Shown: piece after piece, positions 6,799-20,528 of the stretch
Layout of the letters: every line of letters begins with the position of its first letter
Numbering within the stretch: position 1 is the first letter of the stretch
Assembly: GCA_030167145.1 (NCBI GenBank)
Contig: CP126532.1
Coordinates: 3,360,001-3,392,000, forward strand
DNA from: Ktedonobacterales bacterium
Lineage (GTDB): Bacteria > Chloroflexota > Ktedonobacteria > Ktedonobacterales > JADMIN01
DNA: 32,000 bases
Reading direction: 5' to 3'
The notes under the pieces: generated by a model
The model's input: the letters and a program-made list of their open reading frames with translations, nothing else
Databases searched by the model: none
Told to the model about the DNA's origin: nothing
Made by a program: the position numbers and the translations under genes

Positions 6799-6847
6799 TG
6801 TGCGCTCCGAGTTGGTGGGTTCAATGATAGCTGTTCTGTTATTCGTA
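6799..6847 (+). repeat. Family A core repeat, copy 1
   Basis: gtgcgctccgagttggtgggttcaatgatagctgttctgttattcgta. The core (A/G)T(A/G)GCYGTTCTGTTA recurs at 7125-7149, 7331-7371, 7527-7553, 13554-13594 and 13752-13778, always in the same orientation. Confidence 0.6.
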
Positions 6848-7124
6848 CTCCCCCACCGTGGCGGGCGATCATGGTGGCAATGCACGGTAGCGGTGGGAGG
6901 GGTTCTGCGGCGGGGCGCTGGGTGGCGGGGTCCCCCACTGGGGGCTTGTTGGTGATGGGGTGGGGGAAGCGCGCCGCGTGGGGTGGTTGGGTGGGGTCTG
7001 CGCGCGTGGCGGCGGAGTTGGGGTGGTGGGGTTGGGGGCCGCGACGCGCTCTGCGTTGGGGGTTCGGGGTGGTCTGCTCAACGCTGCGGTGGCCGCTCCG
7101 CGTGCCAGTTAGTTTTGCTGGTGC

Positions 7125-7220
7125 GATCATAGCTGTTCTGTTATTCGTACCCTTCGTACCCTTCGTACCCTTGGCGCGGCAACCCGAGTAGCCCAAGGGG
7201 CAATCGGGGCCGCGCCAAGC
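7125..7220 (+). repeat. Family A core copy 2, then a 9-nt tandem repeat and a variant of the family A hairpin
   Basis: gatcatagctgttctgttattcgta is followed by cccttcgta x3 (about 7146-7172). Next comes CTTGGCGCGGC-aacccgagtagcccaaggggcaatcgg-GCCGCGCCAAG, an 11-bp stem. The equivalent stem at 7374-7420 is CCGCGCGGC/GCCGCGCGG, so the changes are paired on both sides. Confidence 0.6.
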
Positions 7221-7255
7221 CGTAACCTAGAGGCGGGGGGGTTGGGGTGGGGGGT

Positions 7256-7303
7256 GTGGGGGGCGGGTGGGGGCAAACTTTACCCCCAACTCCCGCCCCC
7301 CAC
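7256..7303. repeat. Long G/C-tract hairpin
   Basis: GTGGGGGGCGGG-t-GGGGG-caaacttta-CCCCC-aact-CCCGCCCCCCAC gives 12 + 5 bp of pairing. It sits in G-runs (7234-7275). Smaller relatives are TGGGGGtggaaCCCCCA (~6317-6333) and TGGGGGGcatCCCCCCA (~6494-6510). Confidence 0.5.
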
Positions 7304-7330
7304 TTCTCCGCATGGCGGTTCGCTTGCCCT

Positions 7331-7567
7331 CCGAGTTGGTGGGTTCAATGATAGCTGTTCTGTTATTCGTAATCCCGCGCGGCAACCCGAGTTCTTGGAT
7401 GATAATCGGGGCCGCGCGGTCTGTGTGGCAGGATGCCGGTATGGCTTATACGCCGCCCGCGTAGGGCCGCGCAGCGCGTACCCTCAACGCTGTGGTGGCG
7501 GTACGGCTTCAATTGCGGTTTTGTGGGTTCAATAGTGGCTGTTCTGTTAGGGGTGGGTGGTCGGGGG
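7331..7567 (+). repeat. Long direct repeat, left copy (partner at 13554-13835)
   Basis: 7331-7447 matches 13554-13670 at 115 of 117 positions by my reading. After a short divergent spacer, 7466-7567 is homologous to 13696-13835. The only gap is a 39-nt insertion present in the right copy alone. Confidence 0.8.
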
Positions 7568-7660
7568 ACGGCGGGGTGTGGTGGGGGGTGTGGGGCCGGT
7601 GGGTGTGGGGGTTGGGGTGGTGGGGCGTCCATGCCCCGGTGGTTGCGCTATCGTGTTGCG

Positions 7661-8086
7661 CTACTTTGTTGCGGGCCGTGGTTCGGGCCGGTCGGGCAGG
7701 CAGTGGTAGCAGAGGAAGTTGGCGGGGAGGGGCATGGTGGGGAAGCGCCAGCGGCCATGCGTTTTGCAGACGTGTCGCCCGCAGCCGTCGCAGCGGTACT
7801 CGATGGGTTGGCCGCAGTCCGGCTCGGCGCAGCGGTCGTCCATTGGTTCGCAGGTGTCGGCTTCAGCTTCGTCGCCGTCGCCGTGGAGCCGTGCGCGCAT
7901 GGCGGTGCAAGCGGCGCGGACATGCTTAGCGGTGACCTGGGGCGTGTAGTGGTCGCGGGCGATCCGCTCGGCCTCGTAGGGCAGTTCGAGGCGGTCGGCT
8001 TCGGTGATGGCCGGATGGTGGAGGCAGGTGTCACGGCAGCGCATGACTTGGCGTTGGGCGTCAGAGGTGAAGATGAGGGTAAGCAT
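7661..8086 (-). CDS. Hypothetical Cys-rich (zinc-binding-like) protein (141 aa)
   Basis: ATG at 8086 with AGGAGAG upstream. The C-terminal half (CAEPDCGQPIEYRCDGCGRHVCKTHG...FLCYHC) suggests two zinc knuckles. No family recognised. Confidence 0.6.
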   Translation of the reverse strand: MLTLIFTSDAQRQVMRCRDTCLHHPAITEADRLELPYEAERIARDHYTPQVTAKHVRAACTAMRARLHGDGDEAEADTCEPMDDRCAEPDCGQPIEYRCDGCGRHVCKTHGRWRFPTMPLPANFLCYHCLPDRPEPRPATK

Positions 8087-8207
8087 GGTAGGTGTTCGCT
8101 CTCCTGTACGTAGGTTGGTCAGTTTGGTTTGGTTGGTTTGGGTGCGGGCCAGCTACGGGGGCCAGCCCGTCTGTTTGGTCGGTTGGTTATTCGGTTAGCC
8201 GGATGGG

Positions 8208-8603
8208 TTAGCGTTGGGTGATGGGGCGCAGATACCAGACGCTCCCAAGGAGGGCGATCTGGCGAATGCGCTCGGCGCAGTAGGCATCGGTGTAGGCGGA
8301 CTGTGCCGCCATGAAGCGGGCGAATGCGGCTTCTTTCTTGCGCCACATGGCGCGAATGGTTGCTGCGTCTTCGTAGGCGTCGGGTCGCATGATCGCGGCA
8401 AAGGCGTCGTGGAGTGGTCGCCAGATGGCGGCGGCGGCGCATGACTCCTGGTAGAGTTGGCGCACGGCGGGGGTGTTGCGGACGCGCTCCGCTACGGCTA
8501 GCTCGGCATCGGCGCTGAGGCGCGGCTGTCGTGCCGGTGGGTCGGTGGTGAAGGGCGTTGTTGCTCCAGTGGCGCGGCTTGTGCCTAGTGTGTTCGTTTG
8601 CAC
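8208..8603 (-). CDS. Hypothetical protein (131 aa)
   Basis: GTG start at 8603 preceded by GAGGAGCGTACCAACC. This leader is shared with the gene starting at 10756. The composition is helical and protein-like. Confidence 0.6.
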   Translation of the reverse strand: MQTNTLGTSRATGATTPFTTDPPARQPRLSADAELAVAERVRNTPAVRQLYQESCAAAAIWRPLHDAFAAIMRPDAYEDAATIRAMWRKKEAAFARFMAAQSAYTDAYCAERIRQIALLGSVWYLRPITQR

Positions 8604-8624
8604 GGTTGGTACGCTCCTCGTTCT

Positions 8625-8669
8625 GATGCGCCCTCCTCGGAACGGACTCGGAGGGACTGCGCTACGCTT
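8625..8669 (+). repeat. Hairpin mini-element family C, copy 3, interrupting a conserved leader cassette
   Basis: gatgcgccctcctcggaacggactcggagggactgcgctacgctt lies between two gttct pentamers (8620-8624 and 8670-8674). The uninterrupted homologous leader at 10757-10787 reads ...gctccgttctcggtggttc. Confidence 0.6.
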
Positions 8670-8684
8670 GTTCTCGGTGGTTTA

Positions 8685-8729
8685 GGTGAATGGCTGGCCG
8701 GTAGGTTACTCAGGCATGCTCCGGCCAGC
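8685..8729. promoter_or_regulatory. Intercistronic GC-rich hairpin (family F)
   Basis: The stem is GCTGGCCGG (8693-8701) / CCGGCCAGC (8721-8729) with a 19-nt loop. The 18-nt lead-in ggtgaatggctggccggt is identical to 9467-9484. It lies in the 8604-8766 gap of the leftward operon. Confidence 0.4.
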
Positions 8730-8766
8730 GGACGTGCTACAGGGTGGGACTACGGGGACGATCACG

Positions 8767-9285
8767 CTAGAAGGGGATGTCAGCGGACTCGGCGCGCTTG
8801 GCGGCTTGCTGCTCCATCCACGCGGGGTAGTCGTCTATGGCGTCGAGGAGGGCGCTGGTGAGGTCTTCGCCGGAGTAGTTGATGGGTATGGCTTCGTGGT
8901 AGCTGTTGGGGCCGTAGACGCGCCAGGGGCGATAGCCCTGGAAGTAGCGATAGGCCAGTATCCACGGTTCGCCATGCACGGTTATGGTGACGATAGCGCC
9001 GGTGTTGTCGTCGTCTTCGCGCTGCTCGTCGTAGTCCACTTCGGCGGCGAGGGCGTGCATCAGTTCGGCGCTGAAGTGGTCGCGTACCAGGGCGGCGAGG
9101 TTGTTCATCGCGTCTTCGCGCTCCTGGGCGATCTGGCGGGCGCGGTGGGCTTCGGCTTCGGCGCGCTCCTCGGCGCGGACGCTGCGGCGCGCGGCTAGCA
9201 GGTCATCGAGCGTGGGACTGTGCGTGGGCGCTCCGGTCGCCGTGGTGGTCGTGGTCGTCGTGTTGTTTGATACGTGGTTGCTCAT
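8767..9285 (-). CDS. Hypothetical protein (172 aa) ending in an SSB-like DIPF tip
   Basis: I chose ATG 9285 because it forms an ATGA overlap with the stop of the upstream 53-aa ORF. The ORF track's longer 9369 start would overlap that ORF. Features are an N-terminal Thr run (NNTTTTTTTATG), a charged helical segment, a globular C-terminal half, and a terminus ...AKRAESADIPF. Confidence 0.65.
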   Translation of the reverse strand: MSNHVSNNTTTTTTTATGAPTHSPTLDDLLAARRSVRAEERAEAEAHRARQIAQEREDAMNNLAALVRDHFSAELMHALAAEVDYDEQREDDDNTGAIVTITVHGEPWILAYRYFQGYRPWRVYGPNSYHEAIPINYSGEDLTSALLDAIDDYPAWMEQQAAKRAESADIPF

Positions 9286-9443
9286 GGGAGTTGGTTCGTG
9301 CCTTTCTTGCTTGCTCGTTTCCGGGCAATGGGTCGGACGATAAAAAGCCATATGTCTAGGGCGACGCATGCTAGTGCGAGCAATGCGAGGATGAGCCAGC
9401 CAATCGCGTCTGCGATGTCGAGGATGTTCAGTAGGGTGTGCAT
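9282..9443 (-). CDS. Small single-TM protein (53 aa)
   Basis: ATG at 9443 with GGAG 13 nt upstream. The sequence is MHTLLNILDIADAIGWLILALLALACVALDIWLFIVRPIARKRASKKGTNQLP, one hydrophobic helix plus a basic tail. It is translationally coupled to the next gene (ATGA). Confidence 0.45.
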   Translation of the reverse strand: MHTLLNILDIADAIGWLILALLALACVALDIWLFIVRPIARKRASKKGTNQLP

Positions 9444-9466
9444 GCTAGTCGGTTGGCTCCGTTTGT

Positions 9467-9506
9467 GGTGAATGGCTGGCCGGTCGGTCAACTCCGCGCG
9501 GCCAGC
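9467..9506. promoter_or_regulatory. Intercistronic GC-rich hairpin (family F)
   Basis: The stem is GCTGGCCG (9475-9482) / CGGCCAGC (9499-9506) with a 16-nt loop. The lead-in is the same as at 8685. It is followed by ggtacgcgctacaaggg, which recurs at ~10358-10375. Confidence 0.4.
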
Positions 9507-9569
9507 GGTGAACCTACGGGTACGATCAGGGGAAACCAAGGGTGAACCTACAGGTACGCGCTACAAGGG

Positions 9570-10265
9570 TTAAAAGGGGATGGCTTCACAGGCGACAGGG
9601 TCGGCGGTTTCGGCGGTTTCGGCAGTGGTTGCGGTATCCGGCGCAGTGGGGTCTTCGGGTACAAGCTGCTTGGCGAGGAAGGCCAGCAGGGCGCAGGCGA
9701 TGTGCTGCGGCACGCCGTCTATCGTCACTCGCACGGCGTCCGGGTAGGGGTAGGCGCCGTCGTGTCCTGGTTGCTGGTGAAACACAATGCGGGTGTGTGA
9801 ACGGGGATAGCTCGGATGGGGTACGCCATCGAGTACGGTTTCGCCGTTCAGGGTGGTATGGCTCGCCGTCAGTGGTCGGGCGGCGTCCAGCAGTTCTGCT
9901 AACATCTCGGCGCTACGCTGCTCGCGGGCGTCTTGCTCACGCTTGATGCGTGTGGCCTCGGCGAGCACCTGCCGGTACTCTGGCCAGATGCGGCGCTCGA
10001 TCTCGCGCACGATGACGGCGGCTCCGCGACTACTGGCAACAGTGATGGTGGGTATGGTCATCCCGTGGGGATGTGTCAGGCCATCGGGTAGCCATACGTC
10101 CACCTGTGTGCGTGTGCCGTTGTCGCTGATGCTGAGGCGCTGGCCGTCTGGCCCACGGAAGACGGTTTTCCATCCATAGTCTTTATCCTGTTGCCAGCCA
10201 GCGCCAAGCTGTGTAAGGAATAGGGCGGCGTTCTCGTCGCTCAGGGTTCCAGAAATGTAGCTCAT
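9570..10265 (-). CDS. Hypothetical protein (231 aa) with a disordered acidic tail ending in AIPF
   Basis: I chose ATG 10265 because GAGGAG lies 11 nt upstream. The track's 10346 start adds an unlikely extension. The body is globular, followed by the tail PEDPTAPDTATTAETAETADPVACEAIPF. Confidence 0.65.
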   Translation of the reverse strand: MSYISGTLSDENAALFLTQLGAGWQQDKDYGWKTVFRGPDGQRLSISDNGTRTQVDVWLPDGLTHPHGMTIPTITVASSRGAAVIVREIERRIWPEYRQVLAEATRIKREQDAREQRSAEMLAELLDAARPLTASHTTLNGETVLDGVPHPSYPRSHTRIVFHQQPGHDGAYPYPDAVRVTIDGVPQHIACALLAFLAKQLVPEDPTAPDTATTAETAETADPVACEAIPF

Positions 10266-10474
10266 GGCTAGGTATGCTCCTCGGTGGTCGGGTTGGTGTT
10301 CTTGGTGATTCGGGTTGGATAGGCTGGCTGTGGCTCCGGTTGCCAAAGCCAGCGGGTACGCGCTACAGGGACAATGGTTGGTGGGTGGTGTCTCCTCCGC
10401 TCCGGTGCGCGTCCGTTAGGACTCTCCTTGCGCTGATGTATCTGCTGTCCAGCCCCGGCGCGGTGGGGTAGCTA

Positions 10475-10756
10475 TCAGGCGCGCTTACGTCGGGTACGCT
10501 TATCGCGTGCGTAGGCGCTCAGGTCGGCAAGGACTGTGCTCCCGCGCATGGCTTCTCGAAGCTCATTCGCTTCGGCTTCGGGGTCAAAATCGGCGAAGAG
10601 CGGCGGCGGTGGGTCGTCGGGTAGGTCCGTCCAGAGGTACAGGTTCATGCGGCGGGCGGCTCCGCAACGCAAGCAGATTTCGTAGGCGTCGGCGCATGCG
10701 GGGTTCCATTGGTGTCCGGTGGCCTTGCAAGCGGCTTTCTTGCCTTTGATAGCCAT
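10475..10756 (-). CDS. Small zinc-ribbon protein (93 aa)
   Basis: ATG at 10756 preceded by ACGGAGCGTACCAACC. The sequence MAIKGKKAACKATGHQWNPACADAYEICLRCG has a C..C..CxxC pattern, and the C-terminus is basic (KRTRRKRA). The track's upstream extension overlaps the previous gene. Confidence 0.6.
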   Translation of the reverse strand: MAIKGKKAACKATGHQWNPACADAYEICLRCGAARRMNLYLWTDLPDDPPPPLFADFDPEAEANELREAMRGSTVLADLSAYARDKRTRRKRA

Positions 10757-10799
10757 GGTTGGTACGCTCCGTTCTCGGTGGTTCAGGTGGTCGGTTCGG

Positions 10800-12164
10800 T
10801 TACTTCCAGATGGAAAATGGGCGATTGTCGCGGGCAAGTGGTGCGGTTTCGCGGTCGTAGGCTTCGGGGTCGTACTCCGCGCGCCACTCCTCATCACTGA
10901 GGCGGCGGGCGTCATTGGCTCGGCCTTCCTCGCGGTACTTGCGTTGGCGCAGCTGCTCGCGGCGGATCATGCGGCGGGCGGCGGCGGTGCTATCTTTGCT
11001 GCCGCGTGTGAGGAAGTGGGGCCGGTAATCGGGGGCGCCGGTTCCGGCATTGGCGCGGGCCGTGTGGAGCAGGCCGCGCCGGGCGGCGCAGTCGTCGCAG
11101 ATATATTCGCGGTCAAGCTCGCCGGTGGCCGCCGCGCCGCAATGGCAGCGGGGGATGATAAGCTGCTCGCCGGTGGTGGGATTAGAGTAGGCGCGTTCGA
11201 GGCACGAGAGGCAGTCGCCAAGCTGGGCTAGCTCCTCGGCGCTGATGGGGCCGCCGCAGGAGGGGCACGCCAGCAGGCCAGCGGGGGCAACGGTGATGGG
11301 GGACTCGGCGGCGGGGGCTGGCTCGACGGCAACCGGCGCGGGCGCTGGGACGGGGTCGGGTAGCGCAGGACCGCGCGGAACCCCGGCATACGAGGCAGGA
11401 TGACTCGTCGCCGGATCGCCCGCAGGCGACTCCCCCGCGTCGCTCGGCTCGGCTGCGCCACCATTGGGGGATGGTGGCTCCGGGTTGGGGTCGTCGTCGT
11501 TGCTTTCGATGCCAATGGCGATGCCAAGCTCGGCGGCGCGCATCTCGGCGTGCGTCATCCAGCGGGCCATAGGCGCAACGGGGTGGGCGATTTCGTCGGC
11601 GGTTGGCTCGCCAGCGAAATAGGCGCAGCGAGCGCAATAGCCGCGCGGGTCAGACTTGACATAATCGGCATCCTTAAAATCGGCATTGCAACGCCAGTGA
11701 CGGCAATAGGCCGGTGCGCGCTCTTCGACGACCACGGCAACTGGCGCGGGGGACTCGACCACGGCGGCGGCAACGGGAGGAACCACGGGGGCGGGGGCGC
11801 TGGCCGAAGCCTGGGCTGGGGCTGCGAGAACCCCAGCGGCGACGAGAAGATGCAACCGCACAAACGCGCAATGGGAGCAGGTGCCCGCGCGGCGGCAACC
11901 GGGGCAGGGGCAGACGAGACGCGCGCCAGCCACACGCACCACATAGGCCACGCCGGCGGAAGAACCGGACGCCACCACCCATGCGCTATCTGCGATGTGC
12001 TCGCCGGGAAGCTCGGCAAGCAGGGCGAGGGGGCGAGACAGGGCACGAAGGCCAGCACGGGCGACGGCGGCGGCGAGGGCGGCGGGCAGGCCAGACGGCA
12101 CGAACCCGGCGGGCAGGGACGGGGCAACGGTGGCGGGGGCGGTGATCGAAGCGGCTGCGCTCAT
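10800..12164 (-). CDS. SWIM zinc-finger and multi-zinc-ribbon protein (454 aa), first gene of the leftward operon
   Basis: ATG at 12164 with GAGGAG 9 nt upstream. There is a SWIM-like CxC...CxH motif (LVCPCPGCRRAGTCSHCAFV, nt ~11868-11915). Further Cys clusters are CRHWRCN...CARCAYF, CPSCGG...CLSC and CHCG...CDDC, separated by Ala/Pro linkers. The ORF-track model (to 12962) runs across the AT-rich region and tandem repeats, so I rejected that part. Confidence 0.7.
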   Translation of the reverse strand: MSAAASITAPATVAPSLPAGFVPSGLPAALAAAVARAGLRALSRPLALLAELPGEHIADSAWVVASGSSAGVAYVVRVAGARLVCPCPGCRRAGTCSHCAFVRLHLLVAAGVLAAPAQASASAPAPVVPPVAAAVVESPAPVAVVVEERAPAYCRHWRCNADFKDADYVKSDPRGYCARCAYFAGEPTADEIAHPVAPMARWMTHAEMRAAELGIAIGIESNDDDPNPEPPSPNGGAAEPSDAGESPAGDPATSHPASYAGVPRGPALPDPVPAPAPVAVEPAPAAESPITVAPAGLLACPSCGGPISAEELAQLGDCLSCLERAYSNPTTGEQLIIPRCHCGAAATGELDREYICDDCAARRGLLHTARANAGTGAPDYRPHFLTRGSKDSTAAARRMIRREQLRQRKYREEGRANDARRLSDEEWRAEYDPEAYDRETAPLARDNRPFSIWK

Positions 12165-12270
12165 GGCTAGATTCTCCTCGGCGAACATTAGATGCAAATG
12201 ACTATTTGATGATTCTATTGTCTCATATTTGATACAAAATGACAACATATAAACGTCGCAAATGTCGAAT
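12165..12270 (-). promoter_or_regulatory. AT-rich island: candidate promoter/operator for the leftward operon, or a DNA-unwinding element
   Basis: This is the only strongly AT-rich stretch inside the element (gatgcaaatgactatttgatgattctattgtctcatatttgatacaaaatgacaacatataaacg). On the minus strand it reads TTGTCA (12245-12240), a 17-nt spacer, then GACAAT (12222-12217). The direct repeats AAATGAC and ATTTGAT each occur twice. Confidence 0.4.
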
Positions 12271-12311
12271 GCGCGCGACGGGGCTGGGCTGCGCCTGGAC
12301 TCCGCGCCAGC

Positions 12312-12619
12312 GGGGGAACGCGGGGGCGGTGGTCGAGGACACTCGCGCCAGCTCGCGCCAGCCGGAAAACGCGGGGACGCCGAGACGCCCCTCGACCAGG
12401 GGCAGGAAAGCCGGAAAACGCGGGGGCAACCGACGCCCGGAGCCGACGCCCGGAGCCGACGCCCGGAGCCGGGAAACGCGGGGCACGCCAGAGCGCCAAA
12501 CGACGCCGAAAACGCGGAGGACGCCGAAAACGCGGAGGACGCCGACCCGCCGAAAAGGCGAAAAATGCGCTCGGCGAGAGCGCCAACCCGACGCCCAACC
12601 GCCGACGAAAACGCGCGTG
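12312..12619. repeat. Iteron-like array beside the AT-rich island
   Basis: There are at least 7 copies of G(G/A)AAACGCGG(G/A)G: 12312-12326, 12361-12376, 12410-12426, 12468-12483, 12502-12519, 12520-12537 and 12604-12619. Also present are 13-nt cgacgcccggagc x3 (12431-12469), 18-nt gacgccgaaaacgcggag x2.5 (12502-12546), and ctcgaccagggg at ~12390 and ~12663. Confidence 0.6.
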
Positions 12620-12795
12620 CGCTCGTCGAGCCGACGCCCGCCGCCGACGCCCAAAGCGCGCGCTCGACCAGGGGCCGAACGACAAGCAGGCGGAGGCCAC
12701 CACCACCCCAAACACCCTCAGAGGGTCTGCTCTCGTCCGCGCGGAGGCGCGGGGTCAAAAAAATTGCTCCCTCTGGTGGGTGGCAACAAGCAGAC

Positions 12796-13027
12796 GTAGT
12801 CCCGTTAGGGAAGCGCCCACCACCCGCGCAGATGCTCGGACGGAAAAAGAGCAAAGTCCCGTTAGGGAAACGGTAGCCATATGCGGAGATGCTCGGACGG
12901 TAGGATGCCCTCTCTTCTCTCGAAGAGAGAACGGGGTCAAAAACACCGTGCTGCTCAATCACGCATCCGCCCTATTGAGGGAAAGAGCAAAGTCCCGTTA
13001 GGGAAACGGTAGCCATATGCGGAGATG
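12796..13027 (+). repeat. Three spaced copies of a ~46-nt unit
   Basis: A perfect 46-mer, aaagagcaaagtcccgttagggaaacggtagccatatgcggagatg, occurs at 12846-12891 and 12982-13027. A diverged copy lies at 12796-12843 (gtagtcccgttagggaagcg...gcagatgctcggacgg). Each contains the mini-hairpin CCGTTagggaAACGG. Confidence 0.7.
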
Positions 13028-13553
13028 GTGGGGTGAGGAGATGCCGTAGTCCCCAACTCGCTGTACGGTGATGCTTCGCTGTGGCCTGTTCGCTTGCGGC
13101 GCTGCGGCATGCTTCGCGCAGATGTTGACTATACACACAGATGGTCGGTTGTACAGCGCACCATGCTGGCTTCGATGCGCCGCCTCGCAATGGCCTGTAT
13201 GTGCTTCTCCCCCGTCATTAAAAAAGCGCCGCAGCGCCGCGGTGGGTGTGGCCCCTACGGAATGGCCTGTGACCTCACCCTCCACGGAGATCTTTCAATT
13301 ACCGCAATGTCGAAGGGGCCACCCCACCGCGTTCCCGGAGGGAAAATCTTTAACCTCGCCACGCTGGGATGCTCACTATGCACGCGGATGCTGAGTCGTA
13401 CAGCGTCACTTGCTCGTGCAGCGTCCTATGAATCGCCGACGCGCCCGATCCCGTCACGCGCGTACCCTCCAACGCGCTAGGCTACACTGCTCCGCTTTAG
13501 CCTGTGGCCGTCGGACGGAATGCGATGCCGCAATGGCCTGCGCCGTGTGCGCT

Positions 13554-13835
13554 CCGCGTTGGTGGGTTCAATGATAGCCGTTCTGTTATTCGTAATCCCG
13601 CGCGGCAACCCGAGTTCTTGGATGATAATCGGGGCCGCGCGGTCTGTGTGGCAGGATGCCGGTATGGCTTGGCATGGGGTGCAGGGGTGTCCCCTGCCGC
13701 GCAGCGCGTACCCCCCAACTCGCTCTGTCGGTACGGCTCAACTCCGAGTTGGAGGTGACAACGATAGCTGTTCTGTTAGGGCAAGCGCAGCGCAGCCCCT
13801 CCGAGCCGTTCCGAGGAGGGGTGGGTGGTCGGGGG
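13554..13835 (+). repeat. Long direct repeat, right copy (partner at 7331-7567)
   Basis: See the left copy. This one also holds the hairpin CAGGGGtgtCCCCTG (~13682-13697) in the divergent spacer, and the 39-nt family C insertion. Confidence 0.8.
13782..13820 (-). repeat. Hairpin mini-element family C, copy 4 (inverted), at a filled site
   Basis: The reverse complement reads ccctcctcggaacggctcggaggggctgcgctgcgcttg. The flanks are ttaggg | element | gtgggtggtcggggg. The left repeat copy reads ttaggg-gtgggtggtcggggg without it (7547-7567). Confidence 0.7.
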
Positions 13836-14027
13836 TGGTCGGACGCCGCGATGCTCGGAAGCGGGTGGGATGGTCGGAGGGAACACATGGTGAACGGGGC
13901 GGGGGGTGGTGGGGCATATACTCAGCGGTGACATGCCCATCGTGAACTTGACAGGGTCGTTGGGCGTGTGGTAGATTTGTTCTAACGGTCGGTACTTTCC
14001 GTTGTTCTCGGTGGTTCGACGTGTAGT

Positions 14028-14088
14028 CGCCGCCTCGGCTCATTCCACTGGCATCCGTGCTGGTGTTGAGTTGGGGCGGCGCTTTTTT
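14028..14088 (+). terminator. Possible intrinsic terminator just upstream of the head operon
   Basis: CGCCGCCTC (14028-14036) can pair with GGGGCGGCG (14073-14081), followed by T6 (14083-14088). The 36-nt loop is long, so confidence is low. gcggcgcttttttatgac (14076-14093) is the near-exact inverted partner of 13214-13232. Confidence 0.3.
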
Positions 14089-14152
14089 ATGACACGTCGG
14101 CGGCGGTAGGCGGGTCTACGACGGGGATGGGCGAGGGGTCAGGTGAGGCGAT

Positions 14153-16558
14153 ATGGGAAGAACCATGGCGGCACAGGCACGGACGGCGAAGACTCCGAAG
14201 ACGGTGGAGAAACCTTTGGAGAAGCGGGCGGCGGCGGCGGGCGAAGCAGTCAAGGCGGAGAGAACGTTGACGCGCGTGGCGTTGCCGTGCTCGATCAGGA
14301 TTGTGGACGAGGAGCGGCGCGAGGTGGAGATCTGCGCGACGAGTGAGGCGCTGGACTCGTATGGGACGGTCTTCGACTATGACGCGAGCAAAGACGCCTT
14401 CACGCGGTGGATCGGCAATGTGCGCGAGATGCACGAGAGGAAGGCTGTGGGCCAGCGGGTGGCGGTGCGCTACGATGATGACGCGCGGAAGGTGTACGCG
14501 CGGGTGCGCATCAGCGCGGGGGCGGAGGACACCTGGGAGAAGGTGAAGGACGGGACGCTGCGCGGGGCGAGCATCGGGGCAAGCAATGTGGAATGGCGCA
14601 CGCAGCGGCGCACGGTCGGCGGTGGCCTGGACGGCAGAGAGACGGATGTGCCGGTGGCGACGCGCTACGATCTGGTGGAACTGAGCTTGGTGGACAATCC
14701 GAGCAACCCGGATGCGGTGGGCGTGACGTTCATCCGCAATGGCGAGGTGGACGCTGAGCGGCTGGAATATCTGCAATCGCTGGTCGGAGACTACGAAGGC
14801 GACGCCGAAGATGAGATGGATGGTGGGCTAGCTGGGGAGAACCGTACTGCTGTATCAGGCCCGGCTCCATCGTCCGTCCCCACCGTTGCCGCCGCTGGCC
14901 TTGGCTCAGCGGTTGCTACGCCAGCGCCCTCTATCATCGAGCGCAACGGCTCGCTTTCGACGGTGGACCCGGCGGAGGCGATAGCGGCGGCGGCGCTGAA
15001 ACGCGGAATGTCTGGGCTACGCCAGGTAGCTGCTGGTGAGACTGCAACGCCAGAGAGCGGTCAACTCTCGGCCTATCATGCGAAGCTGGCACGGCTCGGT
15101 GCGCCGGGGTACGCCAATTACGCCAATGGCGACAGTGCTGAGCGCGTGGCAGCCGCTCCGGCTCCAGGCCAGGGGACATCTGGCTATGGCGTCCAGCAGG
15201 GCTACGACGTGGACGGCGATCATGAGTCGCCGGACGACTACATCAGCATTCAATCGGGACCGACGGCGGGCGCGGTGATGGCGCCCTCGCCTGAAGGCTC
15301 GGTGGCGCATATGGCGCACAGCCACCACCACACCGGCAGGTACGATGACCCAGCGGACCATACGGAGATCTCGGCGCACATGCACCAGGATGGGACGTCG
15401 CACACGCACGAGCATGTGATGGACCATCAGCACGGCGGGCATGAGGGGTTCCCGAACGGCCATACGCACCCGCACGTGCATGTGCCGGAGCACTCGCACG
15501 TCTACCGCTGCGCCGATGGGGAGCCGCTAGACCCACGGGTGCTTGCGCCGGAGGAGGCGCGGAAGCTCGCGTATGTCTCGGCGGCGGCATTCCGCAGCGT
15601 CGGCGGCATCGAGGGTCAGGCGCTCAGCGATGAGCAGTTTCGCGCGGCTGTCGTGCATCATCTGCGGCTGGCTCAGGGACGGCTCGATTCCCCGGCCAGC
15701 GAGCAAGCTGCTACGCATACCGCTGTTACCCAAGCTGATGCGGGTACGGCGGCGGTGGAAAGCCGTGCGCTTGGGCCATACTCACGCAATCCAGGCGGGC
15801 CAGCGGACGCGGGGACGCCGGATATGGTGGACGCAGCGGCGACGGAAACACTCACAGGCGAGGCTGCGCTCGGTGATGGCAACGGCGGTATGCCTGCCCT
15901 GGGTGATGTGGCGGAATGGCTCACACGGCGGGGGACGTGTCCGCTGTGCCAGGGGCAGGTGCGGGCGCTGGACCGCGATGGGAAAGCGATAGCGGGGGCT
16001 GATGCCAATGGTGCGGTCGCCGCTGAGAACGCGGCTGCTATGGCAGGACAAGGCACGCTGGATGTCTCGACGCCGCCGGATGGCTGGACCGGGCGCGGGC
16101 GTCAGCCTGACGCCCCTACGTCTTCCACTGGCACTCCCAAGGCTGCCTACTCTGCTGAGCCAACCATGTATCAGTCGGTGTTCGCGCAGACACTGACCAG
16201 TGAGGTGACGCGGGCGGTGGAGGCACAAACTCGCATCATGGCGGCGGCGCTGGGCGATCTGAAAGAGCGGCTGGCACGCATCGAGGCGCAACCGCAGGCG
16301 GGTGGTCCGGTGCTACGCGCGGCGGAGAAGTCCACGGCGCTGCATCCAAACGGGACTGCTGGCACACAGGGCGCGCCGGGCGCGGGTGAGCAGATACGGG
16401 CGCTGGAGGCGTTGGCGGGGCGGGTGACGGACCCACAGATACAGGTGGCGCTGGCGGCGGAGATGATCCGCTTGCAGCAGGAGCAGGCGGGTCTCCCTCC
16501 GGCGATGATGGTGATGCCCAGGGCTGGCCTCGACGTGACGCGGCGGCAATTCCCTTGA
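14153..16558 (+). CDS. Prohead (HK97-type, S78/U35-like) protease fused to a long His-rich and scaffold-like region (801 aa)
   Basis: ATG at 14153 follows AGGTGAGG. Residues ~45-190 resemble the HK97 prohead protease family (CATSEALDSYGTVFDYDA..., NVREMHERK, LRGASIGAS, YDLVELSLVDNPSNPDAVG). Residues 386-450 are His-rich. Residues ~670-801 are helical and scaffold-like (QTRIMAAALGDLKERLARIEAQ; EMIRLQQEQAG). Confidence 0.85.
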   Translation: MGRTMAAQARTAKTPKTVEKPLEKRAAAAGEAVKAERTLTRVALPCSIRIVDEERREVEICATSEALDSYGTVFDYDASKDAFTRWIGNVREMHERKAVGQRVAVRYDDDARKVYARVRISAGAEDTWEKVKDGTLRGASIGASNVEWRTQRRTVGGGLDGRETDVPVATRYDLVELSLVDNPSNPDAVGVTFIRNGEVDAERLEYLQSLVGDYEGDAEDEMDGGLAGENRTAVSGPAPSSVPTVAAAGLGSAVATPAPSIIERNGSLSTVDPAEAIAAAALKRGMSGLRQVAAGETATPESGQLSAYHAKLARLGAPGYANYANGDSAERVAAAPAPGQGTSGYGVQQGYDVDGDHESPDDYISIQSGPTAGAVMAPSPEGSVAHMAHSHHHTGRYDDPADHTEISAHMHQDGTSHTHEHVMDHQHGGHEGFPNGHTHPHVHVPEHSHVYRCADGEPLDPRVLAPEEARKLAYVSAAAFRSVGGIEGQALSDEQFRAAVVHHLRLAQGRLDSPASEQAATHTAVTQADAGTAAVESRALGPYSRNPGGPADAGTPDMVDAAATETLTGEAALGDGNGGMPALGDVAEWLTRRGTCPLCQGQVRALDRDGKAIAGADANGAVAAENAAAMAGQGTLDVSTPPDGWTGRGRQPDAPTSSTGTPKAAYSAEPTMYQSVFAQTLTSEVTRAVEAQTRIMAAALGDLKERLARIEAQPQAGGPVLRAAEKSTALHPNGTAGTQGAPGAGEQIRALEALAGRVTDPQIQVALAAEMIRLQQEQAGLPPAMMVMPRAGLDVTRRQFP
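16097..16117. repeat. 21-nt palindromic element (family D), copy inside the protease-scaffold CDS
   Basis: gggcgtcagcctgacgcccct is identical to 18600-18620. The stem is GGCGTCA/TGACGCC. It encodes GRQPDAP in both host genes. Confidence 0.6.
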
Positions 16559-16658
16559 TTCCCTTGATGACGGCTCAGCCATGAGCTGAGAAACACATAG
16601 ATGTGGCGATTTCTTCGTGCGGATGGATGTGGTGGTTTGGGGAGGGTAGGTAACGTAG

Positions 16659-18194
16659 GTGGCGGGAGCGATTGCGACAAGTCCATTTTTTGGTGGGGGC
16701 CAGGTGGGGCCGACGATTACGGATGAGACGGTGGCGCTGGTGCGCACGGCGATGGCGGAGACCTCGCGGGCGATTACGGCCGCTTCGGGGCTGATCGGCT
16801 ACGAACTGGAAGCGCCAGCCAAGGTCGTGGTGCCGGTGATTACGCCGCTGGTGAACATGCTGCCGAGGCGCAAGGGCAACGGCGTGGACGTGGTCCACTG
16901 GAAGGCGATCACATCGTTCGACACGGCACGCAACTGGGGCACGCTGGCGGATGGCGGCACACCTCAATCTGTCACCTATCAGGTGGCGCAGATGCAGAAC
17001 ACGCTGCAAACCATCTCGCTGATGAACTCGGTGAGCTTCCAGGCGCAGTGGCGTGGACGTTCCCTCGAAGCGGATGTGCGGGCGCGGCGGGTGGCCGAAC
17101 TGCTCTATCAGCTCAAGATCACCGAAGAGCGGTGGCTGCTGGGTGGCTCGGCGCTGCTGATGACGCCGCCGACCCCGGACCTGACCACGCCGGCGACTGG
17201 TGGGACGGTGGCGGCGGGGACGTATTGGGTGGCGGTGACGGCGAAGAACGCCCAGGGTGAGACCCAGGCCGGAACGACCTTCGCCAAGATCGTGACGACG
17301 GGCACGACTTCGACGGTGACGGTGATCATCTACACCGTGCCCAACGCCACCCAGTACAACGTCTACATCGGCTCCGGCGGCTCGCAGCCCGCGACCAGCG
17401 CCATGTGGCTGCAAGCGGGGATTTCGGGGGCGAATGCGGCGCAACCGGCGACGGGGGCGAGCGTGACGCTGGCCGACGGCGTGACGGTGATGCCGTCGGG
17501 CGAGGTGCAACCGGCGTACCTGACGGTGACGCTGACGGCTCCGCCCGCGACGAGTGGCACGGCGCTTTCCACGGTGGCTGCGAACACCGCCAAGACGTTC
17601 GTGGACGGCTCGAACAACATCCTGATGTGGGATGGGCTGATTGCGCAGGCGATCAACAACCAGGGGACGGGCAACGGCGCGACGCTGGGCGCACAGGTGG
17701 CGCAACCAGCGGCGGCGACGGGCCTGCTGGCCTTGTCGGACATTGATAACCTGCTGGCGGCGATGTACTTGCAGGCGGCGGGCGATCCCGACTACATCAT
17801 CATGAACCCGCTGGACAACGTGCGACTGACCAATCTGGTGGTCGGCGCGGGGCAACTGCGGTATGTGGTGCAGCAGCAGGGCGGGGACAACGGCGATCTC
17901 ACGGCGCAGTATCGCGTCACGCGGTATCTGAACAAGAGCACCGGCAAAGAGATGCCGATCATTCTGGATAGGTACTGTCCGCAGGGGACGATGGTCTTCC
18001 TGCCGATGAGCATTCCGTTCCCGGTGCCGGAAGTCTCCAACGCGGTGGAGATTGAGACGAACCAGGAATACTGGGGCGTAGACTTCGCGATCACCGACGC
18101 CAACTTCAAGTTCGCCGACTTCGTGGAAGAGACGGTGAAAGTCTACTTCCTCGGCGGCTTGGGCGTGCTGCGGGGCATCTACCCGTCGTTCTAA
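16659..18194 (+). CDS. Major capsid protein, HK97-fold-like, with an inserted FN3/Ig-like domain (511 aa)
   Basis: GTG start at 16659 with GGAGGG 12 nt upstream. It sits directly after the protease. Capsid-family style segments are QMQNTLQTISLMNSVSFQAQWRGRSL, ITEERWLLGG and PDYIIMNPLDNVRLTNL. Residues ~168-305 (nt ~17160-17573) look like an FN3/Ig insertion (AGTYWVAVTAKNAQGETQ...TVIIYTVPNATQYNVYIG). A strong terminator follows. Confidence 0.9.
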   Translation: MAGAIATSPFFGGGQVGPTITDETVALVRTAMAETSRAITAASGLIGYELEAPAKVVVPVITPLVNMLPRRKGNGVDVVHWKAITSFDTARNWGTLADGGTPQSVTYQVAQMQNTLQTISLMNSVSFQAQWRGRSLEADVRARRVAELLYQLKITEERWLLGGSALLMTPPTPDLTTPATGGTVAAGTYWVAVTAKNAQGETQAGTTFAKIVTTGTTSTVTVIIYTVPNATQYNVYIGSGGSQPATSAMWLQAGISGANAAQPATGASVTLADGVTVMPSGEVQPAYLTVTLTAPPATSGTALSTVAANTAKTFVDGSNNILMWDGLIAQAINNQGTGNGATLGAQVAQPAAATGLLALSDIDNLLAAMYLQAAGDPDYIIMNPLDNVRLTNLVVGAGQLRYVVQQQGGDNGDLTAQYRVTRYLNKSTGKEMPIILDRYCPQGTMVFLPMSIPFPVPEVSNAVEIETNQEYWGVDFAITDANFKFADFVEETVKVYFLGGLGVLRGIYPSF

Positions 18195-18243
18195 GCGTAT
18201 TGTAAGCCCCTGCGCTACGGCGCGGGGCGTCTCCCAACTCACA

Positions 18244-18280
18244 GGGCTGGTCGGTCACCCCACCGGCCAGCCCGCTTTTT
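18244..18280 (+). terminator. Rho-independent terminator after the capsid gene
   Basis: GGGCTGGTCGGT-cacccc-ACCGGCCAGCCC forms a 12-bp stem with one G-U pair, followed by gcTTTTT. The stem sequence is related to the family F hairpins at 8693 and 9475. Confidence 0.75.
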
Positions 18281-18290
18281 CGGCTCAGCC

Positions 18291-18701
18291 ATGTCAGACA
18301 GCAGTCAGACAGCAGTCAGGATGGTGGAACAGATGTTCGGGATATTTGCGAAGGCGGGGGCATATGCCAATTTGTCACCGGCGGCGCGGGCGACGTTGCG
18401 GTATGTGGAGGTGCAGGCGTTGGGCATCGCGCTTTCGGGGTTGCAGGCGGTGACGCCGCTGCTGTCGAATCCTGATCCGGCGGCGATCCCGTGGGCGAGC
18501 GTGGCGCATACGTTCGTGACGACGGTGGTGCTGTCGCTGGCGGCGGCGGGGGCGAAGTATTACAAGGCGCAGGGCGACCCGCCGATACCGCTCGCGGGAG
18601 GGCGTCAGCCTGACGCCCCTCTTCGGAACGACTCAGAGGGACTGCGCTCCGCTGGTCCTACGCCTGCGGTTGCTCCTCCGGCTGCGCCTCCAGTGGCATG
18701 A
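18291..18701 (+). CDS. Hypothetical protein with two hydrophobic segments (136 aa); the C-terminal tail is built from repeat elements
   Basis: ATG at 18291 has no clear RBS, and an alternative ATG lies at 18321. Hydrophobic segments are VEVQALGIALSGLQAVTPLL and FVTTVVLSLAAAGA. The C-terminal GGRQPDAPLRNDSEGLRSAG is encoded by the family D plus family C elements. Confidence 0.5.
   Translation: MSDSSQTAVRMVEQMFGIFAKAGAYANLSPAARATLRYVEVQALGIALSGLQAVTPLLSNPDPAAIPWASVAHTFVTTVVLSLAAAGAKYYKAQGDPPIPLAGGRQPDAPLRNDSEGLRSAGPTPAVAPPAAPPVA
18600..18655 (+). repeat. Composite family D plus family C (copy 5) element inside a CDS
   Basis: gggcgtcagcctgacgcccct overlaps ccctcttcggaacgactcagagggactgcgctccgctgg. 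Confidence 0.65.
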
Positions 18702-18714
18702 GCGGAGCTTGCAA

Positions 18715-18987
18715 ATGTTCAGGCAGGCGGGGATAGATACGGCGGTGCTGGAAGAACTGCGGGCGATCCGCGCGGAGATCCACGAGCTGGCGGAGAAGGT
18801 GGGGCAGGCGGCGACGCGGGATGATCTGGCGGACTACGTGACACGCGAGGCGTTTGACGCGCATGTGAACCAGCACAAAGAGCGGGTGGCGGACTGGCGG
18901 TTCTGGCTGCCGTATGCGCTGACCGCGTTGATGTTTGTGCTGTATGTGATGCAAGACCTGGGTGTGCGGCTCGTAGCAGGCCGATAG
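18715..18987 (+). CDS. Hypothetical coiled-coil protein with a C-terminal TM anchor (90 aa)
   Basis: I preferred ATG 18715 (GGAG 7 nt upstream, just after the 18701 stop) over the track start at 18670. The sequence is MFRQAGIDTAVLEELRAIRAEIHELAEKVG...WRFWLPYALTALMFVLYVM. Confidence 0.5.
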   Translation: MFRQAGIDTAVLEELRAIRAEIHELAEKVGQAATRDDLADYVTREAFDAHVNQHKERVADWRFWLPYALTALMFVLYVMQDLGVRLVAGR

Positions 18988-19006
18988 GTAGGGAGGTGAG
19001 GCGAGA

Positions 19007-19933
19007 ATGGCGGCGACACTGGGACTCAGCGCCTACATAGATGTGCCGACCTATCTGCGTAGCCCTGTCAATCAGGAGACGGTGACGCTGCTGGGGCTGA
19101 ATACGACGCTCAGCGCGGGCAGCACGCCAGCGGGTACAACGGCGCTGGGTGTGGTCTCGTCTACCGGCTGGGCGGTGGGTACGGCGTGGCTGCTGGATGG
19201 TCCGTACTCGGAGATCGTCACGATTACGGGGAGCGCAGACGGCACGCATGTGACGCTGGCGGCGCCTGGAACACAGTTCGCGCATGGGTTGGGCGCGAGC
19301 ATCTCGCAGGCGGGGACGGCGGGCAGCCTCGCGGAGACGCTGCTGCGGGCCAGCGCGTGGGTGGAGAACTACTGCCAGCAGGGGACGGGCGGCGGGGATA
19401 GGTCGCTGTATGCTGTGGCGCGGACGGAGCGATGGGGTATGCCGTCTACACGCGCGTACATTGACCGTGACAACGTGGTGGCGGTGATGCCTGGGCACTT
19501 CCCGGTGCAGAGTGTCAGCGCGCTCTCCATCGAGTTTGGGCAGGGGCAGAGCCTGAGCCTGGATGTGTCGCAGCTCGAGGAGATGACGGTGGGGCGGATG
19601 GTGGAAGTGCCGTATCTGCTGGCGGGTGGTCCGACGGTGGGGCAACAACTGTTCCTCGACACGGTGGGTCTCTCGCGGACCAGAAGGCAATGGGCGGTGC
19701 TGAGCTACGTGGGCGGCATTACACCCGGCAGCATCCCCTACGATGTGCAGCAGGCGGCGGCGCTGATCGCCTCGGAGGTATTGGGGCAGCGCAGGAATCC
19801 GACGGGGGCAGCGGAGTACAAGCTCGGCAAACTGGACGTGGTGCAGCGGCAACGCGGGGATGCCGTCGGCGATAGCATCCTGCTGCTGCGCGCCAGGGAT
19901 TTGTTGCAACCGTACCGCAGCGAGGTGTGGTGA
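19007..19933 (+). CDS. Putative head-tail connector / head-completion protein with an N-terminal extension (308 aa)
   Basis: ATG at 19007 follows GGGAGGTGAGG. The central segment LAETLLRASAWVENYCQQ resembles gp6-type head-tail connector proteins. The position after the capsid gene fits. The assignment is motif-level only. Confidence 0.55.
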   Translation: MAATLGLSAYIDVPTYLRSPVNQETVTLLGLNTTLSAGSTPAGTTALGVVSSTGWAVGTAWLLDGPYSEIVTITGSADGTHVTLAAPGTQFAHGLGASISQAGTAGSLAETLLRASAWVENYCQQGTGGGDRSLYAVARTERWGMPSTRAYIDRDNVVAVMPGHFPVQSVSALSIEFGQGQSLSLDVSQLEEMTVGRMVEVPYLLAGGPTVGQQLFLDTVGLSRTRRQWAVLSYVGGITPGSIPYDVQQAAALIASEVLGQRRNPTGAAEYKLGKLDVVQRQRGDAVGDSILLLRARDLLQPYRSEVW

Positions 19934-19991
19934 TGGGCGCACGCCACGCCAGGAGGGCGCACACCATGCGCCCCTACTTTCCATAAAGTTC

Positions 19992-20028
19992 GGTATTTCG
20001 GATGTGCTTTGAGTACACGAGAAATACC
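19992..20028 (+). promoter_or_regulatory. Hairpin in a lower-GC gap inside the head operon
   Basis: The stem is GGTATTTC (19992-19999) / GAAATACC (20021-20028) with a 21-nt loop. It is followed by GGGAGG and a 5-codon mini-ORF (ATG 20049, MWPGL stop). The 19934-20114 gap is the only sizeable intergenic gap in the operon. Confidence 0.3.
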
Positions 20029-20114
20029 AAAGTGGGAGGTAAAGCCGTATGTGGCCTGGGCTGTGATAGATTTTGTGATTTTTCGCGCGTGACATGCAAA
20101 CAGAGGCGGCGGCG

Positions 20115-20219
20115 ATGTTCATTGGCGTGCTGGCAATCCTTGCCGCTGTCGTGCTGGCTGTGGCTCCCATCGTTGCGGTGATGGTGATAGGCAGGAACGG
20201 TGATACGTCATGCTACTGA
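20115..20219 (+). CDS. Possible 34-aa hydrophobic micro-protein (below the ORF-track threshold)
   Basis: The ORF encodes MFIGVLAILAAVVLAVAPIVAVMVIGRNGDTSCY, a single predicted TM helix. Its stop (20217-20219) overlaps the ATG of the next gene (20210). The RBS is weak (agagg). Confidence 0.25.
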   Translation: MFIGVLAILAAVVLAVAPIVAVMVIGRNGDTSCY

Positions 20220-20521
20220 CGACGGTACGGCTGGAACGGCCGGAGGGGACGGTGCTGCTGCGGGGCATCTCGGTGCAGATTGAGCAGGCGACGGAACTGG
20301 CGCTCAACGATTTGGAGGGGGCGCGGAGCTACGATAGGTTCTGGCTCTACACACTGCAAGGCGTGCCGACCACGGCGATAGCGCGGCGGGATGTGCTGTT
20401 CGATGAGGTGAATGTGGACGCGGAGACGGGAACGCTGGCGAAATACAGGGTGAGCGGACTGGTGGAGACGTTTGCGGGCGATCATCAAGAGGCGCTGGTC
20501 GAACGGGTAGTGGGGAACTGA
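20210..20521 (+). CDS. Putative head-tail adaptor / head-closure protein (103 aa)
   Basis: Its size, its position, and a C-terminal pattern (KYRVSGLVETFAGDHQEALVERV) recall head-tail joining proteins. No stronger evidence. Confidence 0.5.
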   Translation: MLLTTVRLERPEGTVLLRGISVQIEQATELALNDLEGARSYDRFWLYTLQGVPTTAIARRDVLFDEVNVDAETGTLAKYRVSGLVETFAGDHQEALVERVVGN

Positions 20522-20528
20522 GGCGGAT

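Follow-up and report, generated by a model that had tools for sequence, protein, structure and literature searches.

Two long direct repeats in the DNA of a Ktedonobacterales bacterium differ by a short hairpin-forming sequence, which raises the question of whether this sequence is an insertion and, if so, of what kind. The window, meaning the whole stretch of 32,000 nucleotides (nt) that was analyzed, belongs to a 5.07-Mb Ktedonobacterales metagenome-assembled genome (MAG) held on a single contig (JGI 3300045419 Ga0494333_323, NCBI locus tags OJF49_), in which window position p corresponds to genome coordinate 3,360,000 + p. The sequence in question occupies 39 nt at 13782-13820, within a phage-like island of about 19 kb that has ordinary host genes on both sides. 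A 797-residue protein of the island (14165-16558) and several of its neighbors are all recorded on the 5.07-Mb contig. The original prediction was that the 39 nt are an inserted copy of a repeat, family C, that is or recently was a mobile miniature hairpin element of the REP/Correia/RPE type. The results described below indicate that the sequence is a real, formerly mobile miniature hairpin element, and that it probably belongs to a new family of very small insertion elements, which are non-autonomous.

The most direct evidence comes from a filled and an empty version of the same site. At the empty site, 7538-7567 on the plus strand, GCTGTTCTGTTAGGG abuts GTGGGTGGTCGGGGG; the left copy thus reads gctGTTCTGTTAGGG followed by GTGGGTGGTCGGGGG, 15 + 15 nt, uninterrupted. 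The right copy (13767-13835) contains the same two 15-mers with 39 nt between them (13782-13820, caagcgcagcgcagcccctccgagccgttccgaggaggg), and the 15-mer GTGGGTGGTCGGGGG is found in the whole window at 7553 and 13821 only. The extra 39 nt had been described as the reverse complement of the family core, which was borne out by a core-pattern match at 13797 on the minus strand; on that strand the minimal unit reads CCCTCCTCGGAACGGCTCGGAGGGGCTGCGCTGCGCTTG. A possible 3-base-pair (bp) duplication or ambiguous boundary had also been suspected, and GGG is indeed present on each side of the 39 nt, so that the junction is ambiguous by a shift of up to 3 nt, with four possible placements. The claim that the long repeats are collinear except at this point was overstated. 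A core of 123 nt (7325-7447 and 13548-13670) is 98% identical, but the roughly 100 nt from this core to the insertion site show further indels and an identity of no more than about 62-72%. Because the long repeats are mosaic rather than collinear, the comparison of filled and empty sites rests on the exact 15 + 15 nt junction and not on a long clean alignment.

The 39-nt sequence is not alone. The core pattern CCCTCYTCGGAACGN{1,2}CTCRGAGGG matched six places in the window (6240, 6745, 8631, 18617 and 22433 on the plus strand and 13797 on the minus strand), while 100 shuffles indicated that no match is expected by chance. Together with a split outer copy at 6227-6295, the family has seven copies in the window, six of them on the plus strand and all of them between 6227 and 22471, that is, within the island. 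They are referred to here, by position, as c1 (a composite of two copies) to c6, the 39-nt sequence being c4. A covariance model (R1) trained on eight copies and used to score 156 kb gave the true copies 42.7-65.6 bits, the highest of these values going to c4, and everything else at most 14.5 bits; no decayed copies were found in the 156 kb scanned with this model.

The minimal unit of 39 nt consists of a 6-bp stem (CCCTCY/RGAGGG), a loop of 12-13 nt and a tail of 15 nt (RCTGC GCTNC GCTKG) made of GCTNC-like pentamers. Some copies carry about six extra 5' bases (GATGCG) that are able to extend the stem, and the element as a whole measures 39-46 nt; GATGCG(G) lies directly 5' of the core in c3 and c6 and is missing from c4. 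Conservation was examined in an alignment of 10 copies, seven of them from the window (the nested pair occupying two rows) and three described below (L008, L003 and L002). The row of the outer nested copy was assembled by hand, an extra G being placed in the loop without effect on the stem columns. The copies are 72-95% identical pairwise. The loop, TCGGAACG-(G/GA/A)-CTC, is invariant across the 10 copies except at the single G/GA/A position, and five of the stem pairs show no variation. Stem pair 6 is C-G in five copies, T-A in four and unpaired in one. Copy c5 and the L003 copy have a tail in common, yet their sixth pairs differ; since the switch between C-G and T-A occurs on different tail types, a single inherited double change is insufficient to explain it. 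The stem is kept by compensation, and the loop is kept in sequence.

A second pair of filled and empty sites lies in the 5' leaders of two minus-strand genes. Copy c3 is located in the leader of a gene that starts with GTG at 8603, where the plus strand (8620-8674) reads GTTCT (8620-8624), GATGCG (8625-8630), the element (8631-8670) and a second GTTCT (8670-8674), the last base of the element (8670) doubling as the first base of the second pentamer. The corresponding cassette at 10757-10790 (ggttggtacgctccGTTCTcggtggttcagg, plus strand), upstream on the minus strand of a gene starting with ATG at 10756, is uninterrupted. The region 8575-8700 can be aligned to 10728-10805 and to 13962-14030, apart from an excess of about 50 nt that consists of GTTCT-GATGCG-element. 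The filled/empty relation between 8604-8680 and 10757-10787, which had been reported before, thus held, with about 50 additional nt between the two GTTCT pentamers, and a third cassette, also empty (cggtactttccgttGTTCTcggtggttcga, 13990-14019, plus strand), adds to the list. Read on the minus strand, the leader cassette is the ribosome-binding region of the genes starting at 8603 (GTG) and 10756 (ATG). As a shared unit it can be written GGT(T/C)GGTAC...GTTCTCGGTGGTT (8604-8685, 10757-10790 and 13990-14019), the first two occurrences preceding those genes. The third adjoins the sole good sigma-70-like site of the region, at 13948-13977 on the plus strand (TTGACA-18-TAGATT with TG), which faces the capsid genes.

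Three other copies occur in settings of a different kind. First, c1 (6227-6295, plus strand) had been described as one element inserted into the loop of another, and this layout was confirmed: the outer copy is split into 6227-6239 and 6271-6295, and an inner copy with a shortened tail (6240-6270) lies in the outer loop after GGAAC. The covariance scores were 42.7 bits for the inner copy and 10.5 bits for the right half of the outer copy, and removal of the inner copy leaves an outer loop that is 1 nt short of the consensus or has one mismatch. Tandem duplication would need extra rearrangements to produce this arrangement, whereas insertion accounts for the nested layout directly. Second, c5 (18617-18655, plus strand) lies inside a plus-strand gene for a 136-residue protein (18291-18701), where it is read as APLRNDSEGLRSAG in a Pro/Ala-rich C-terminal tail that is interrupted by the element peptide and resumes in frame after it. 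This peptide was absent from 14 homologues of the 136-residue protein and from two syntenic relatives. Third, c6 (22433-22471, plus strand), preceded by GATGCGG at 22426-22432, lies inside a terS-like helix-turn-helix (HTH) gene (22066-22761, plus strand) and is read, in a frame different from that of c5, as ALFGTAQRGRSA in a variable linker. Homologues conserve the blocks on either side of it (...DHDADDAREQAVL and RLQSQRAQYLRVVLDAEKEIARLEGLY...), their linker is variable or missing, and the c6 peptide was absent from all of the 11 terS homologues at greater distance (42-54% identical). Both coding copies, which the original prediction had not seen, add 12-15 residues and keep the reading frame. 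The homologues without these peptides include those of the syntenic islands L009 and L015. The remaining copy, c2 (6745-6784, plus strand), lies within a non-coding mosaic array and is 95% identical to c3 and to c4.

Collectively, the unit was inserted as a block at five or more separate places, and the settings include a non-coding cassette, a 5' leader, the loop of another copy and a variable linker or tail of two protein genes. The block is tolerated in leaders, in non-coding arrays and in variable protein segments. The orientation of the copies does not correspond to transcription, plus-strand copies being found among minus- and plus-strand genes alike. With two filled/empty pairs, a nested copy and two in-frame coding copies that are absent from homologues, the case for past mobility of the family has become stronger than it was.

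The filled and empty pairs could in principle be read the other way, with the filled form ancestral and the empty sites at 7550 and 10771 produced by precise slippage deletion between GGG...GGG and between GTTCT...GTTCT. Hairpins between direct repeats are classical substrates for deletion by replication slippage, and short direct repeats do bound both filled sites, with one repeat left at each empty site. However, the filled form is found in one of the two GTTCTGTTAGGG cassettes and in one of the three leader cassettes, and several independent precise deletions would be needed. The family is, moreover, wholly absent from related islands, and insertion has to be assumed in any case to account for the nested copy and for two coding copies without a counterpart in any homologue examined. 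Deletion as the general explanation is thus highly improbable.

The ends and target sites of the copies bear on how the element may have moved. The c4 pair fixes the unit at 39 nt, which answers one part of what had been asked about termini and target-site duplications, but no constant duplication or target sequence came to light for the other part. Direct repeats at the flanks are 3 nt for c4 (GGG), 4-5 nt for c3 ((G)TTCT) and 0-1 nt for the nested copy, so that there is no fixed target-site duplication. Most of the tail is missing from the inner copy of c1. The 5' flanks differ from copy to copy (...GCTG, ...TGCG, ...CCAC, ...GACGC, ...GCGG), with at most a weak G/C-rich bias and no motif. 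Such variable ends and flanks are incompatible with a transposase that makes a fixed staggered cut, and they fail the target-site rule of IS200/IS605 elements. They fit joins at microhomology or a single-strand mechanism without duplication.

It had been stated that no transposase for the family is visible in the window, and this proved correct: searches of Pfam, PHROGs, NCBIfam and PDB and a scan for HUH motifs found none there. No RAYT or Y1 HUH transposase was found by Pfam, PHROGs, NCBIfam and HUH scans, which covered the window and about 80 kb of the source genome, or some 2% of it. One gene at a separate locus of the genome (L008, genome 323,708-344,391), at L008 5876-6874, encodes an IS605-type TnpB (OrfB_IS605 plus a Cas12f-like TNB domain) and stands beside a second terminase remnant and a very large Tc-toxin-like gene. 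This TnpB was considered as the mobilizer of the element and rejected, as nothing near it resembles the element.

A mechanism consistent with these features would involve a trans-acting factor, not encoded in the window, that copies the element. Such a factor would recognize the conserved stem and loop on a folded single strand. The joins lie at short variable microhomologies (0-5 nt) rather than at a fixed staggered cut, a pattern that fits two routes. The hairpin might direct insertion into single-stranded DNA, as in the REP/IS200 type, or it might stall replication of the island and so promote microhomology-mediated templated copying. Either route would explain why copies pile up in the island, and the evidence does not separate the two. 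A bolder and rather doubtful extension is that the element is a selfish module of less than 50 nt that multiplies within a capsid-only phage satellite without a transposase, hairpin-stalled replication leading to templated copying nearby, including into variable linkers, and so making new peptide segments in packaging proteins such as the small terminase.

Copies with irregular ends could also arise if a small structured transcript were reverse-transcribed, so that the element moved via RNA. The extents of the copies do vary (c4 is without the GATGCG of c3 and c6, and the inner copy of c1 is without most of the tail), the flanking repeats vary in length, and copies within copies have reportedly been described for the SDRs of Nostoc. 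Against this, searches of the window and of the other loci read turned up no reverse transcriptase, the element has neither an A-rich tail nor another one suited to priming, the transcript is putative, and about 10 copies are too few for statistics on truncation patterns. This route is very unlikely to be the correct one. Scans for non-coding RNA gave little else: searches of Rfam at gathering thresholds returned nothing and permissive thresholds returned only a generic long hairpin at 7237-7317, and no tRNA genes were found in the window. Reading the element as a transcription terminator was considered and rejected, since terminator and promoter scans were blank at the element, there is no T-run 3' of the hairpin, and two copies lie within genes.

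The distribution of the family was examined in the source genome and in public collections that do not include it. Island-type DNA (about 22 kb) held eight copies and 57 kb of other DNA held none; the latter, all from the source genome, was made up of the window flanks, another 5 kb beyond the right end, L004, and L008 minus its terminase segment. At island density 20 copies would be expected in the 57 kb, and the probability of finding none is about 1e-9. In the DNA sampled, the family is thus concentrated in one phage-like island and not dispersed through the genome. Elsewhere, the core pattern matched one of 185,579 species-representative genomes, on a 3.3-kb contig (L002) of a MAG labelled Micromonosporaceae; its core is identical and its tail is related to the family tail, about 0.1 chance matches being expected by a uniform-base estimate. 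A scan of JGI metagenomes yielded one clear member, on a 3.2-kb contig from a soil metagenome (L003), whose tail (ACTGCGCTCYGCTGGTCC) matches that of c5. This copy adjoins a long open reading frame (ORF) for a putative Ser/Thr protein kinase, judged by reading the translation, and the contig has no phage genes. Because the L003 copy shares the c5 tail in other surroundings, the unit is not tied to the island's own sequence.

Other searches were negative. Two patterns had no match in IMG/VR, the element had only chance-level partial matches (E about 0.8) when 50,697 phage and 72,556 plasmid records were searched by BLAST, and BLAST of window positions 6000-14200 against the phage records gave no match. 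A padded 40-residue profile of the element peptide, which worked in a local test, returned no candidate in a homologue search, while a concatenation of six-frame peptides used as the query yielded about 8-9 bits per copy (E about 1e5).

The clustering of copies raises a different explanation, namely that the unit is a functional cis-element of the island. It could act as a protein-binding operator (with CCCTCC-N12/13-GGAGGG as its 6-bp inverted repeat), as a site for packaging or for the binding of terS, or as a signal for RNA processing; selection would keep it, and recombination of modular cassettes would spread it. The near-invariant loop and the five unvarying stem pairs of the 10 copies fit sequence-specific recognition, no decayed copies turned up in the DNA scanned, and six of the seven window copies lie on the same strand. 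In addition, one copy lies within the terS-like gene, and pac sites are often within terS. On the other hand, three related islands of the same gene order have neither a copy nor an analogous motif, a nested copy would destroy the outer site, and two copies add 12-15 residues to proteins in two different frames. The L003 copy next to a kinase-like ORF, on a 3.2-kb contig free of phage genes, also argues against such a role, as do the independence of copy orientation from transcription, the absence of a T-run after the hairpin and the lack of an Rfam match. Selection for a function in the island is thus an unlikely basis for the family as a whole, and an insertion element is the reading followed below.

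Neither a copy nor an analogous repeat family was found in six related islands of the same gene order (L009-L012, L015 and L016), in which terS of L009-L012 is 46-51% identical to that of the window, depending on the alignment, and the capsid proteins of L015 and L016 are 77-79% identical. Within the source genome, L008 holds a terS paralogue with 95% protein identity that carries c6 at the same position (L008 10332-10370). As c6 is present in both paralogues, its insertion predates their duplication, and the duplicates have since diverged to about 8% in terS and about 13% over the whole shared segment. These values, together with the pairwise identities of the copies (72-95%), make it doubtful that the family was mobile recently, as had been suggested. 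The linker of terS, including c6, differs at 1 of 117 nt between the paralogues (22425-22542 versus L008 10324-10441), compared to about 8% for the rest of the gene, and the near-identical tract starts exactly at GATGCGG, the 5' extension of c6. Gene conversion may have produced this tract; terS has another run of 74 identical nt, which makes the tract less significant.

Compared to known systems, the element works like the miniature hairpin repeats of the REP, RPE and SDR types but is a new sequence family that appears to belong to none of them by their defining features. The comparison that had been drawn with the REP/Correia/RPE type therefore holds as a likeness to mobile hairpins and fails as a label, as the element has no GTAG/CGTC tag, no terminal inverted repeats beyond its stem and no fixed duplication. 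REPs are recognized by a GTAG or CGTC tetranucleotide at the 5' end of the palindrome (PMC3733652), and REPINs are REPs arranged as inverted doublets (PMC3116915). Like the element, they are non-autonomous imperfect palindromes of 20-40 nt, mostly extragenic and without a fixed target-site duplication; if the element were likewise recognized as a folded single strand, the conservation of its stem and loop would be accounted for. REPs are mobilized by RAYT (TnpA-REP) transposases, whose gene usually has REPs on its flanks, and they are dispersed at high copy number through extragenic space. In contrast, each of the ten copies begins with CCCTC and finishes with CGCTKG or a variant, with neither GTAG nor CGTC at either terminus. 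There are no inverted doublets, no copies in the 57 kb of non-island DNA and no RAYT gene visible in the DNA scanned, and two copies lie in coding sequence.

The RPEs are hairpin repeats found between genes and in frame within protein genes, to which they add a peptide without destroying the protein (PMC10969869). The same behavior is seen in c5 and c6, after which a homologous Pro/Ala-rich tail or conserved blocks continue. The element measures 39-46 nt, and its host is a member of the Chloroflexota with about eight known copies, concentrated in a phage-like island; it is thereby set apart from RPEs as they are described. RPEs are about 100-150 bp long, are not known outside Rickettsia and have many copies.

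The SDRs of Nostoc punctiforme are 21-27 nt long and occur in hundreds of copies across cyanobacterial chromosomes, and an RNA-based movement was reportedly proposed for them by Elhai et al. in 2008. Copies within copies, a predicted hairpin with compensatory change and short tandem repeats nearby are reportedly found as well, and we know of no transposase for these repeats. The element resembles them in its size below 50 nt, its nested copy, its one compensatory stem pair and its tail of GCTNC pentamers; it differs in being longer, rare and island-associated in a different host, so that size, abundance and host all set it apart.

Correia elements and other bacterial MITEs are likewise small non-autonomous insertions with filled and empty sites, which may be located in leaders and influence expression. 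Correia elements span 100-155 bp, with terminal inverted repeats of about 26 bp and a TA duplication. By comparison, the only inverted repeat of the element is its internal 6-bp stem. In c4, for which the empty site defines both ends, no 5' terminus is complementary to the 3' tail, and the direct repeats at the flanks of the copies are inconsistent (0-5 nt) rather than a duplication of fixed length. Finally, PATEs and other IS200/IS605 derivatives undergo hairpin-directed transposition as single-strand DNA, with no duplication and with strand-biased insertion, and an IS605-type TnpB exists in the source genome. However, PATEs need two distinct subterminal hairpins and a conserved target of 4-5 nt 5' of the left end, while the element has one hairpin and a 5' flank that is not conserved. 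The combination of 39-46 nt, nesting, in-frame coding insertions and concentration in a capsid-only phage-like island of Ktedonobacterales is unusual.

Several points weigh against an insertion element. The copies have no consistent terminus, flanking duplication or target sequence in common, and no mobilizing enzyme was found: the early genes of the island have no usable match in Pfam, PHROGs, NCBIfam or PDB, and no HUH motif occurs in a plausible protein. Short direct repeats around a hairpin are also what slippage deletion leaves behind. The 'empty' state of the c5 and c6 sites was deduced from variable linkers and not from alignable DNA. The hairpin is modest and no more stable than expected for its G+C content, with z-scores of -1.4 to +0.65 against shuffled sequence. 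The DNA sampled permits up to about 270 copies genome-wide. Current mobility is unproven, with about 10 copies known at the identities given above; the 90%-identity clusters of five island proteins contain the source genome only.

If the insertion reading is true, the element is among the smallest DNA units with direct evidence of repeated insertion, and to our knowledge no such family has been reported before in Ktedonobacteria (Chloroflexota). Filled and empty sites side by side, a nested copy and two in-frame coding insertions are all present in a compact, clonable island of about 19 kb. The locus could thus serve as a test bed for how hairpin repeats of less than 50 nt move without a nearby transposase, and it illustrates a way for such elements to extend a terS-like, putative packaging protein by new peptide segments.

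The repeat may also contribute to assembly breaks, as three of six mapped ends of short-read contigs lie inside copies. Contigs of the same strain in Logan (SRR22113990) end inside c5 (18619), c4 (13791) and c1 (6256), and other mapped ends (22097 and 17022) lie in sequence shared with paralogues. These ends fit repeated k-mers, possibly from further identical copies elsewhere, or loss of coverage at hairpins.

The genes of the island itself look like those of a capsid-forming phage satellite (cf-PICI-like) rather than a full prophage. On the plus strand, the stretch 14165-25072 holds genes for a prohead-protease-like protein, an SU10-type major capsid protein, small proteins, a head-tail-adaptor-like protein, a portal protein, the HTH terS-like protein, a large terminase and a 321-residue protein; no tail genes were found among them. 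To the left lie small minus-strand ORFan genes (7661-12188), between two non-coding mosaic arrays (about 5900-7660 and 12880-14150). Island relatives in other metagenomes (L009-L012 and L015) have the same layout. The prohead-protease-like gene (14165-16558) is unusually long at 797 residues and has just a weak S78 match, over residues 121-188; the homologue in one related island (P0007, L009 1987-4452) has 821 residues and a DNA cytosine methylase domain.

The mosaic arrays contain further repeats. A module ending GGTTCAATGATAGCTGTTCTGTTA occurs six times in them on the plus strand (6774-6841, 7076-7143, 7298-7365, 7482-7549, 13521-13588 and 13711-13778). Either TTCGTA... or a G-rich tract follows each copy, and the promoter scan showed no sigma-70-like site in these modules. 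A second conserved hairpin, CCGCGCGGCAACCCGAG...AATCGGGGCCGCGCGG, occurs at 7376-7428 and 13599-13651 and has no Rfam match; in a variant at 7176-7222 (TTGGCGCGGC...GCCGCGCCAA) the stem is kept by changes on both sides, and this hairpin may be a structured RNA or a binding site. In a long hairpin at 7232-7312 a G-rich arm pairs with a C-rich arm, and its weak, sub-threshold matches to many microRNA precursor models reflect a generic shape. A tandem repeat with a unit of 13 nt (GAGCCGACGCCCG) and a 64-nt repeat present three times (...AAGTCCCGTTAGGGAAACGG...GATGCTCGGACGG), at 12427-12482 and 12789-13045, fall in the N-terminal part of the longest ORF (10800-12962), a part that looks non-coding; JGI places the start of the gene at 12188.

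Genes flanking the island encode a WD40-Roc-TIR protein (80-3631, minus strand) and a TIR-HAMP-MCP-signaling protein (29777-31399, plus strand), and a type I restriction HsdR gene (L013 1-1566) lies just past the right end of the window. The neighborhood may be a defense island. Also on the right flank, a 649-residue pentapeptide-repeat protein (25138-27087, minus strand) is the source of the 30-nt periodic repeats at 25777-26742.

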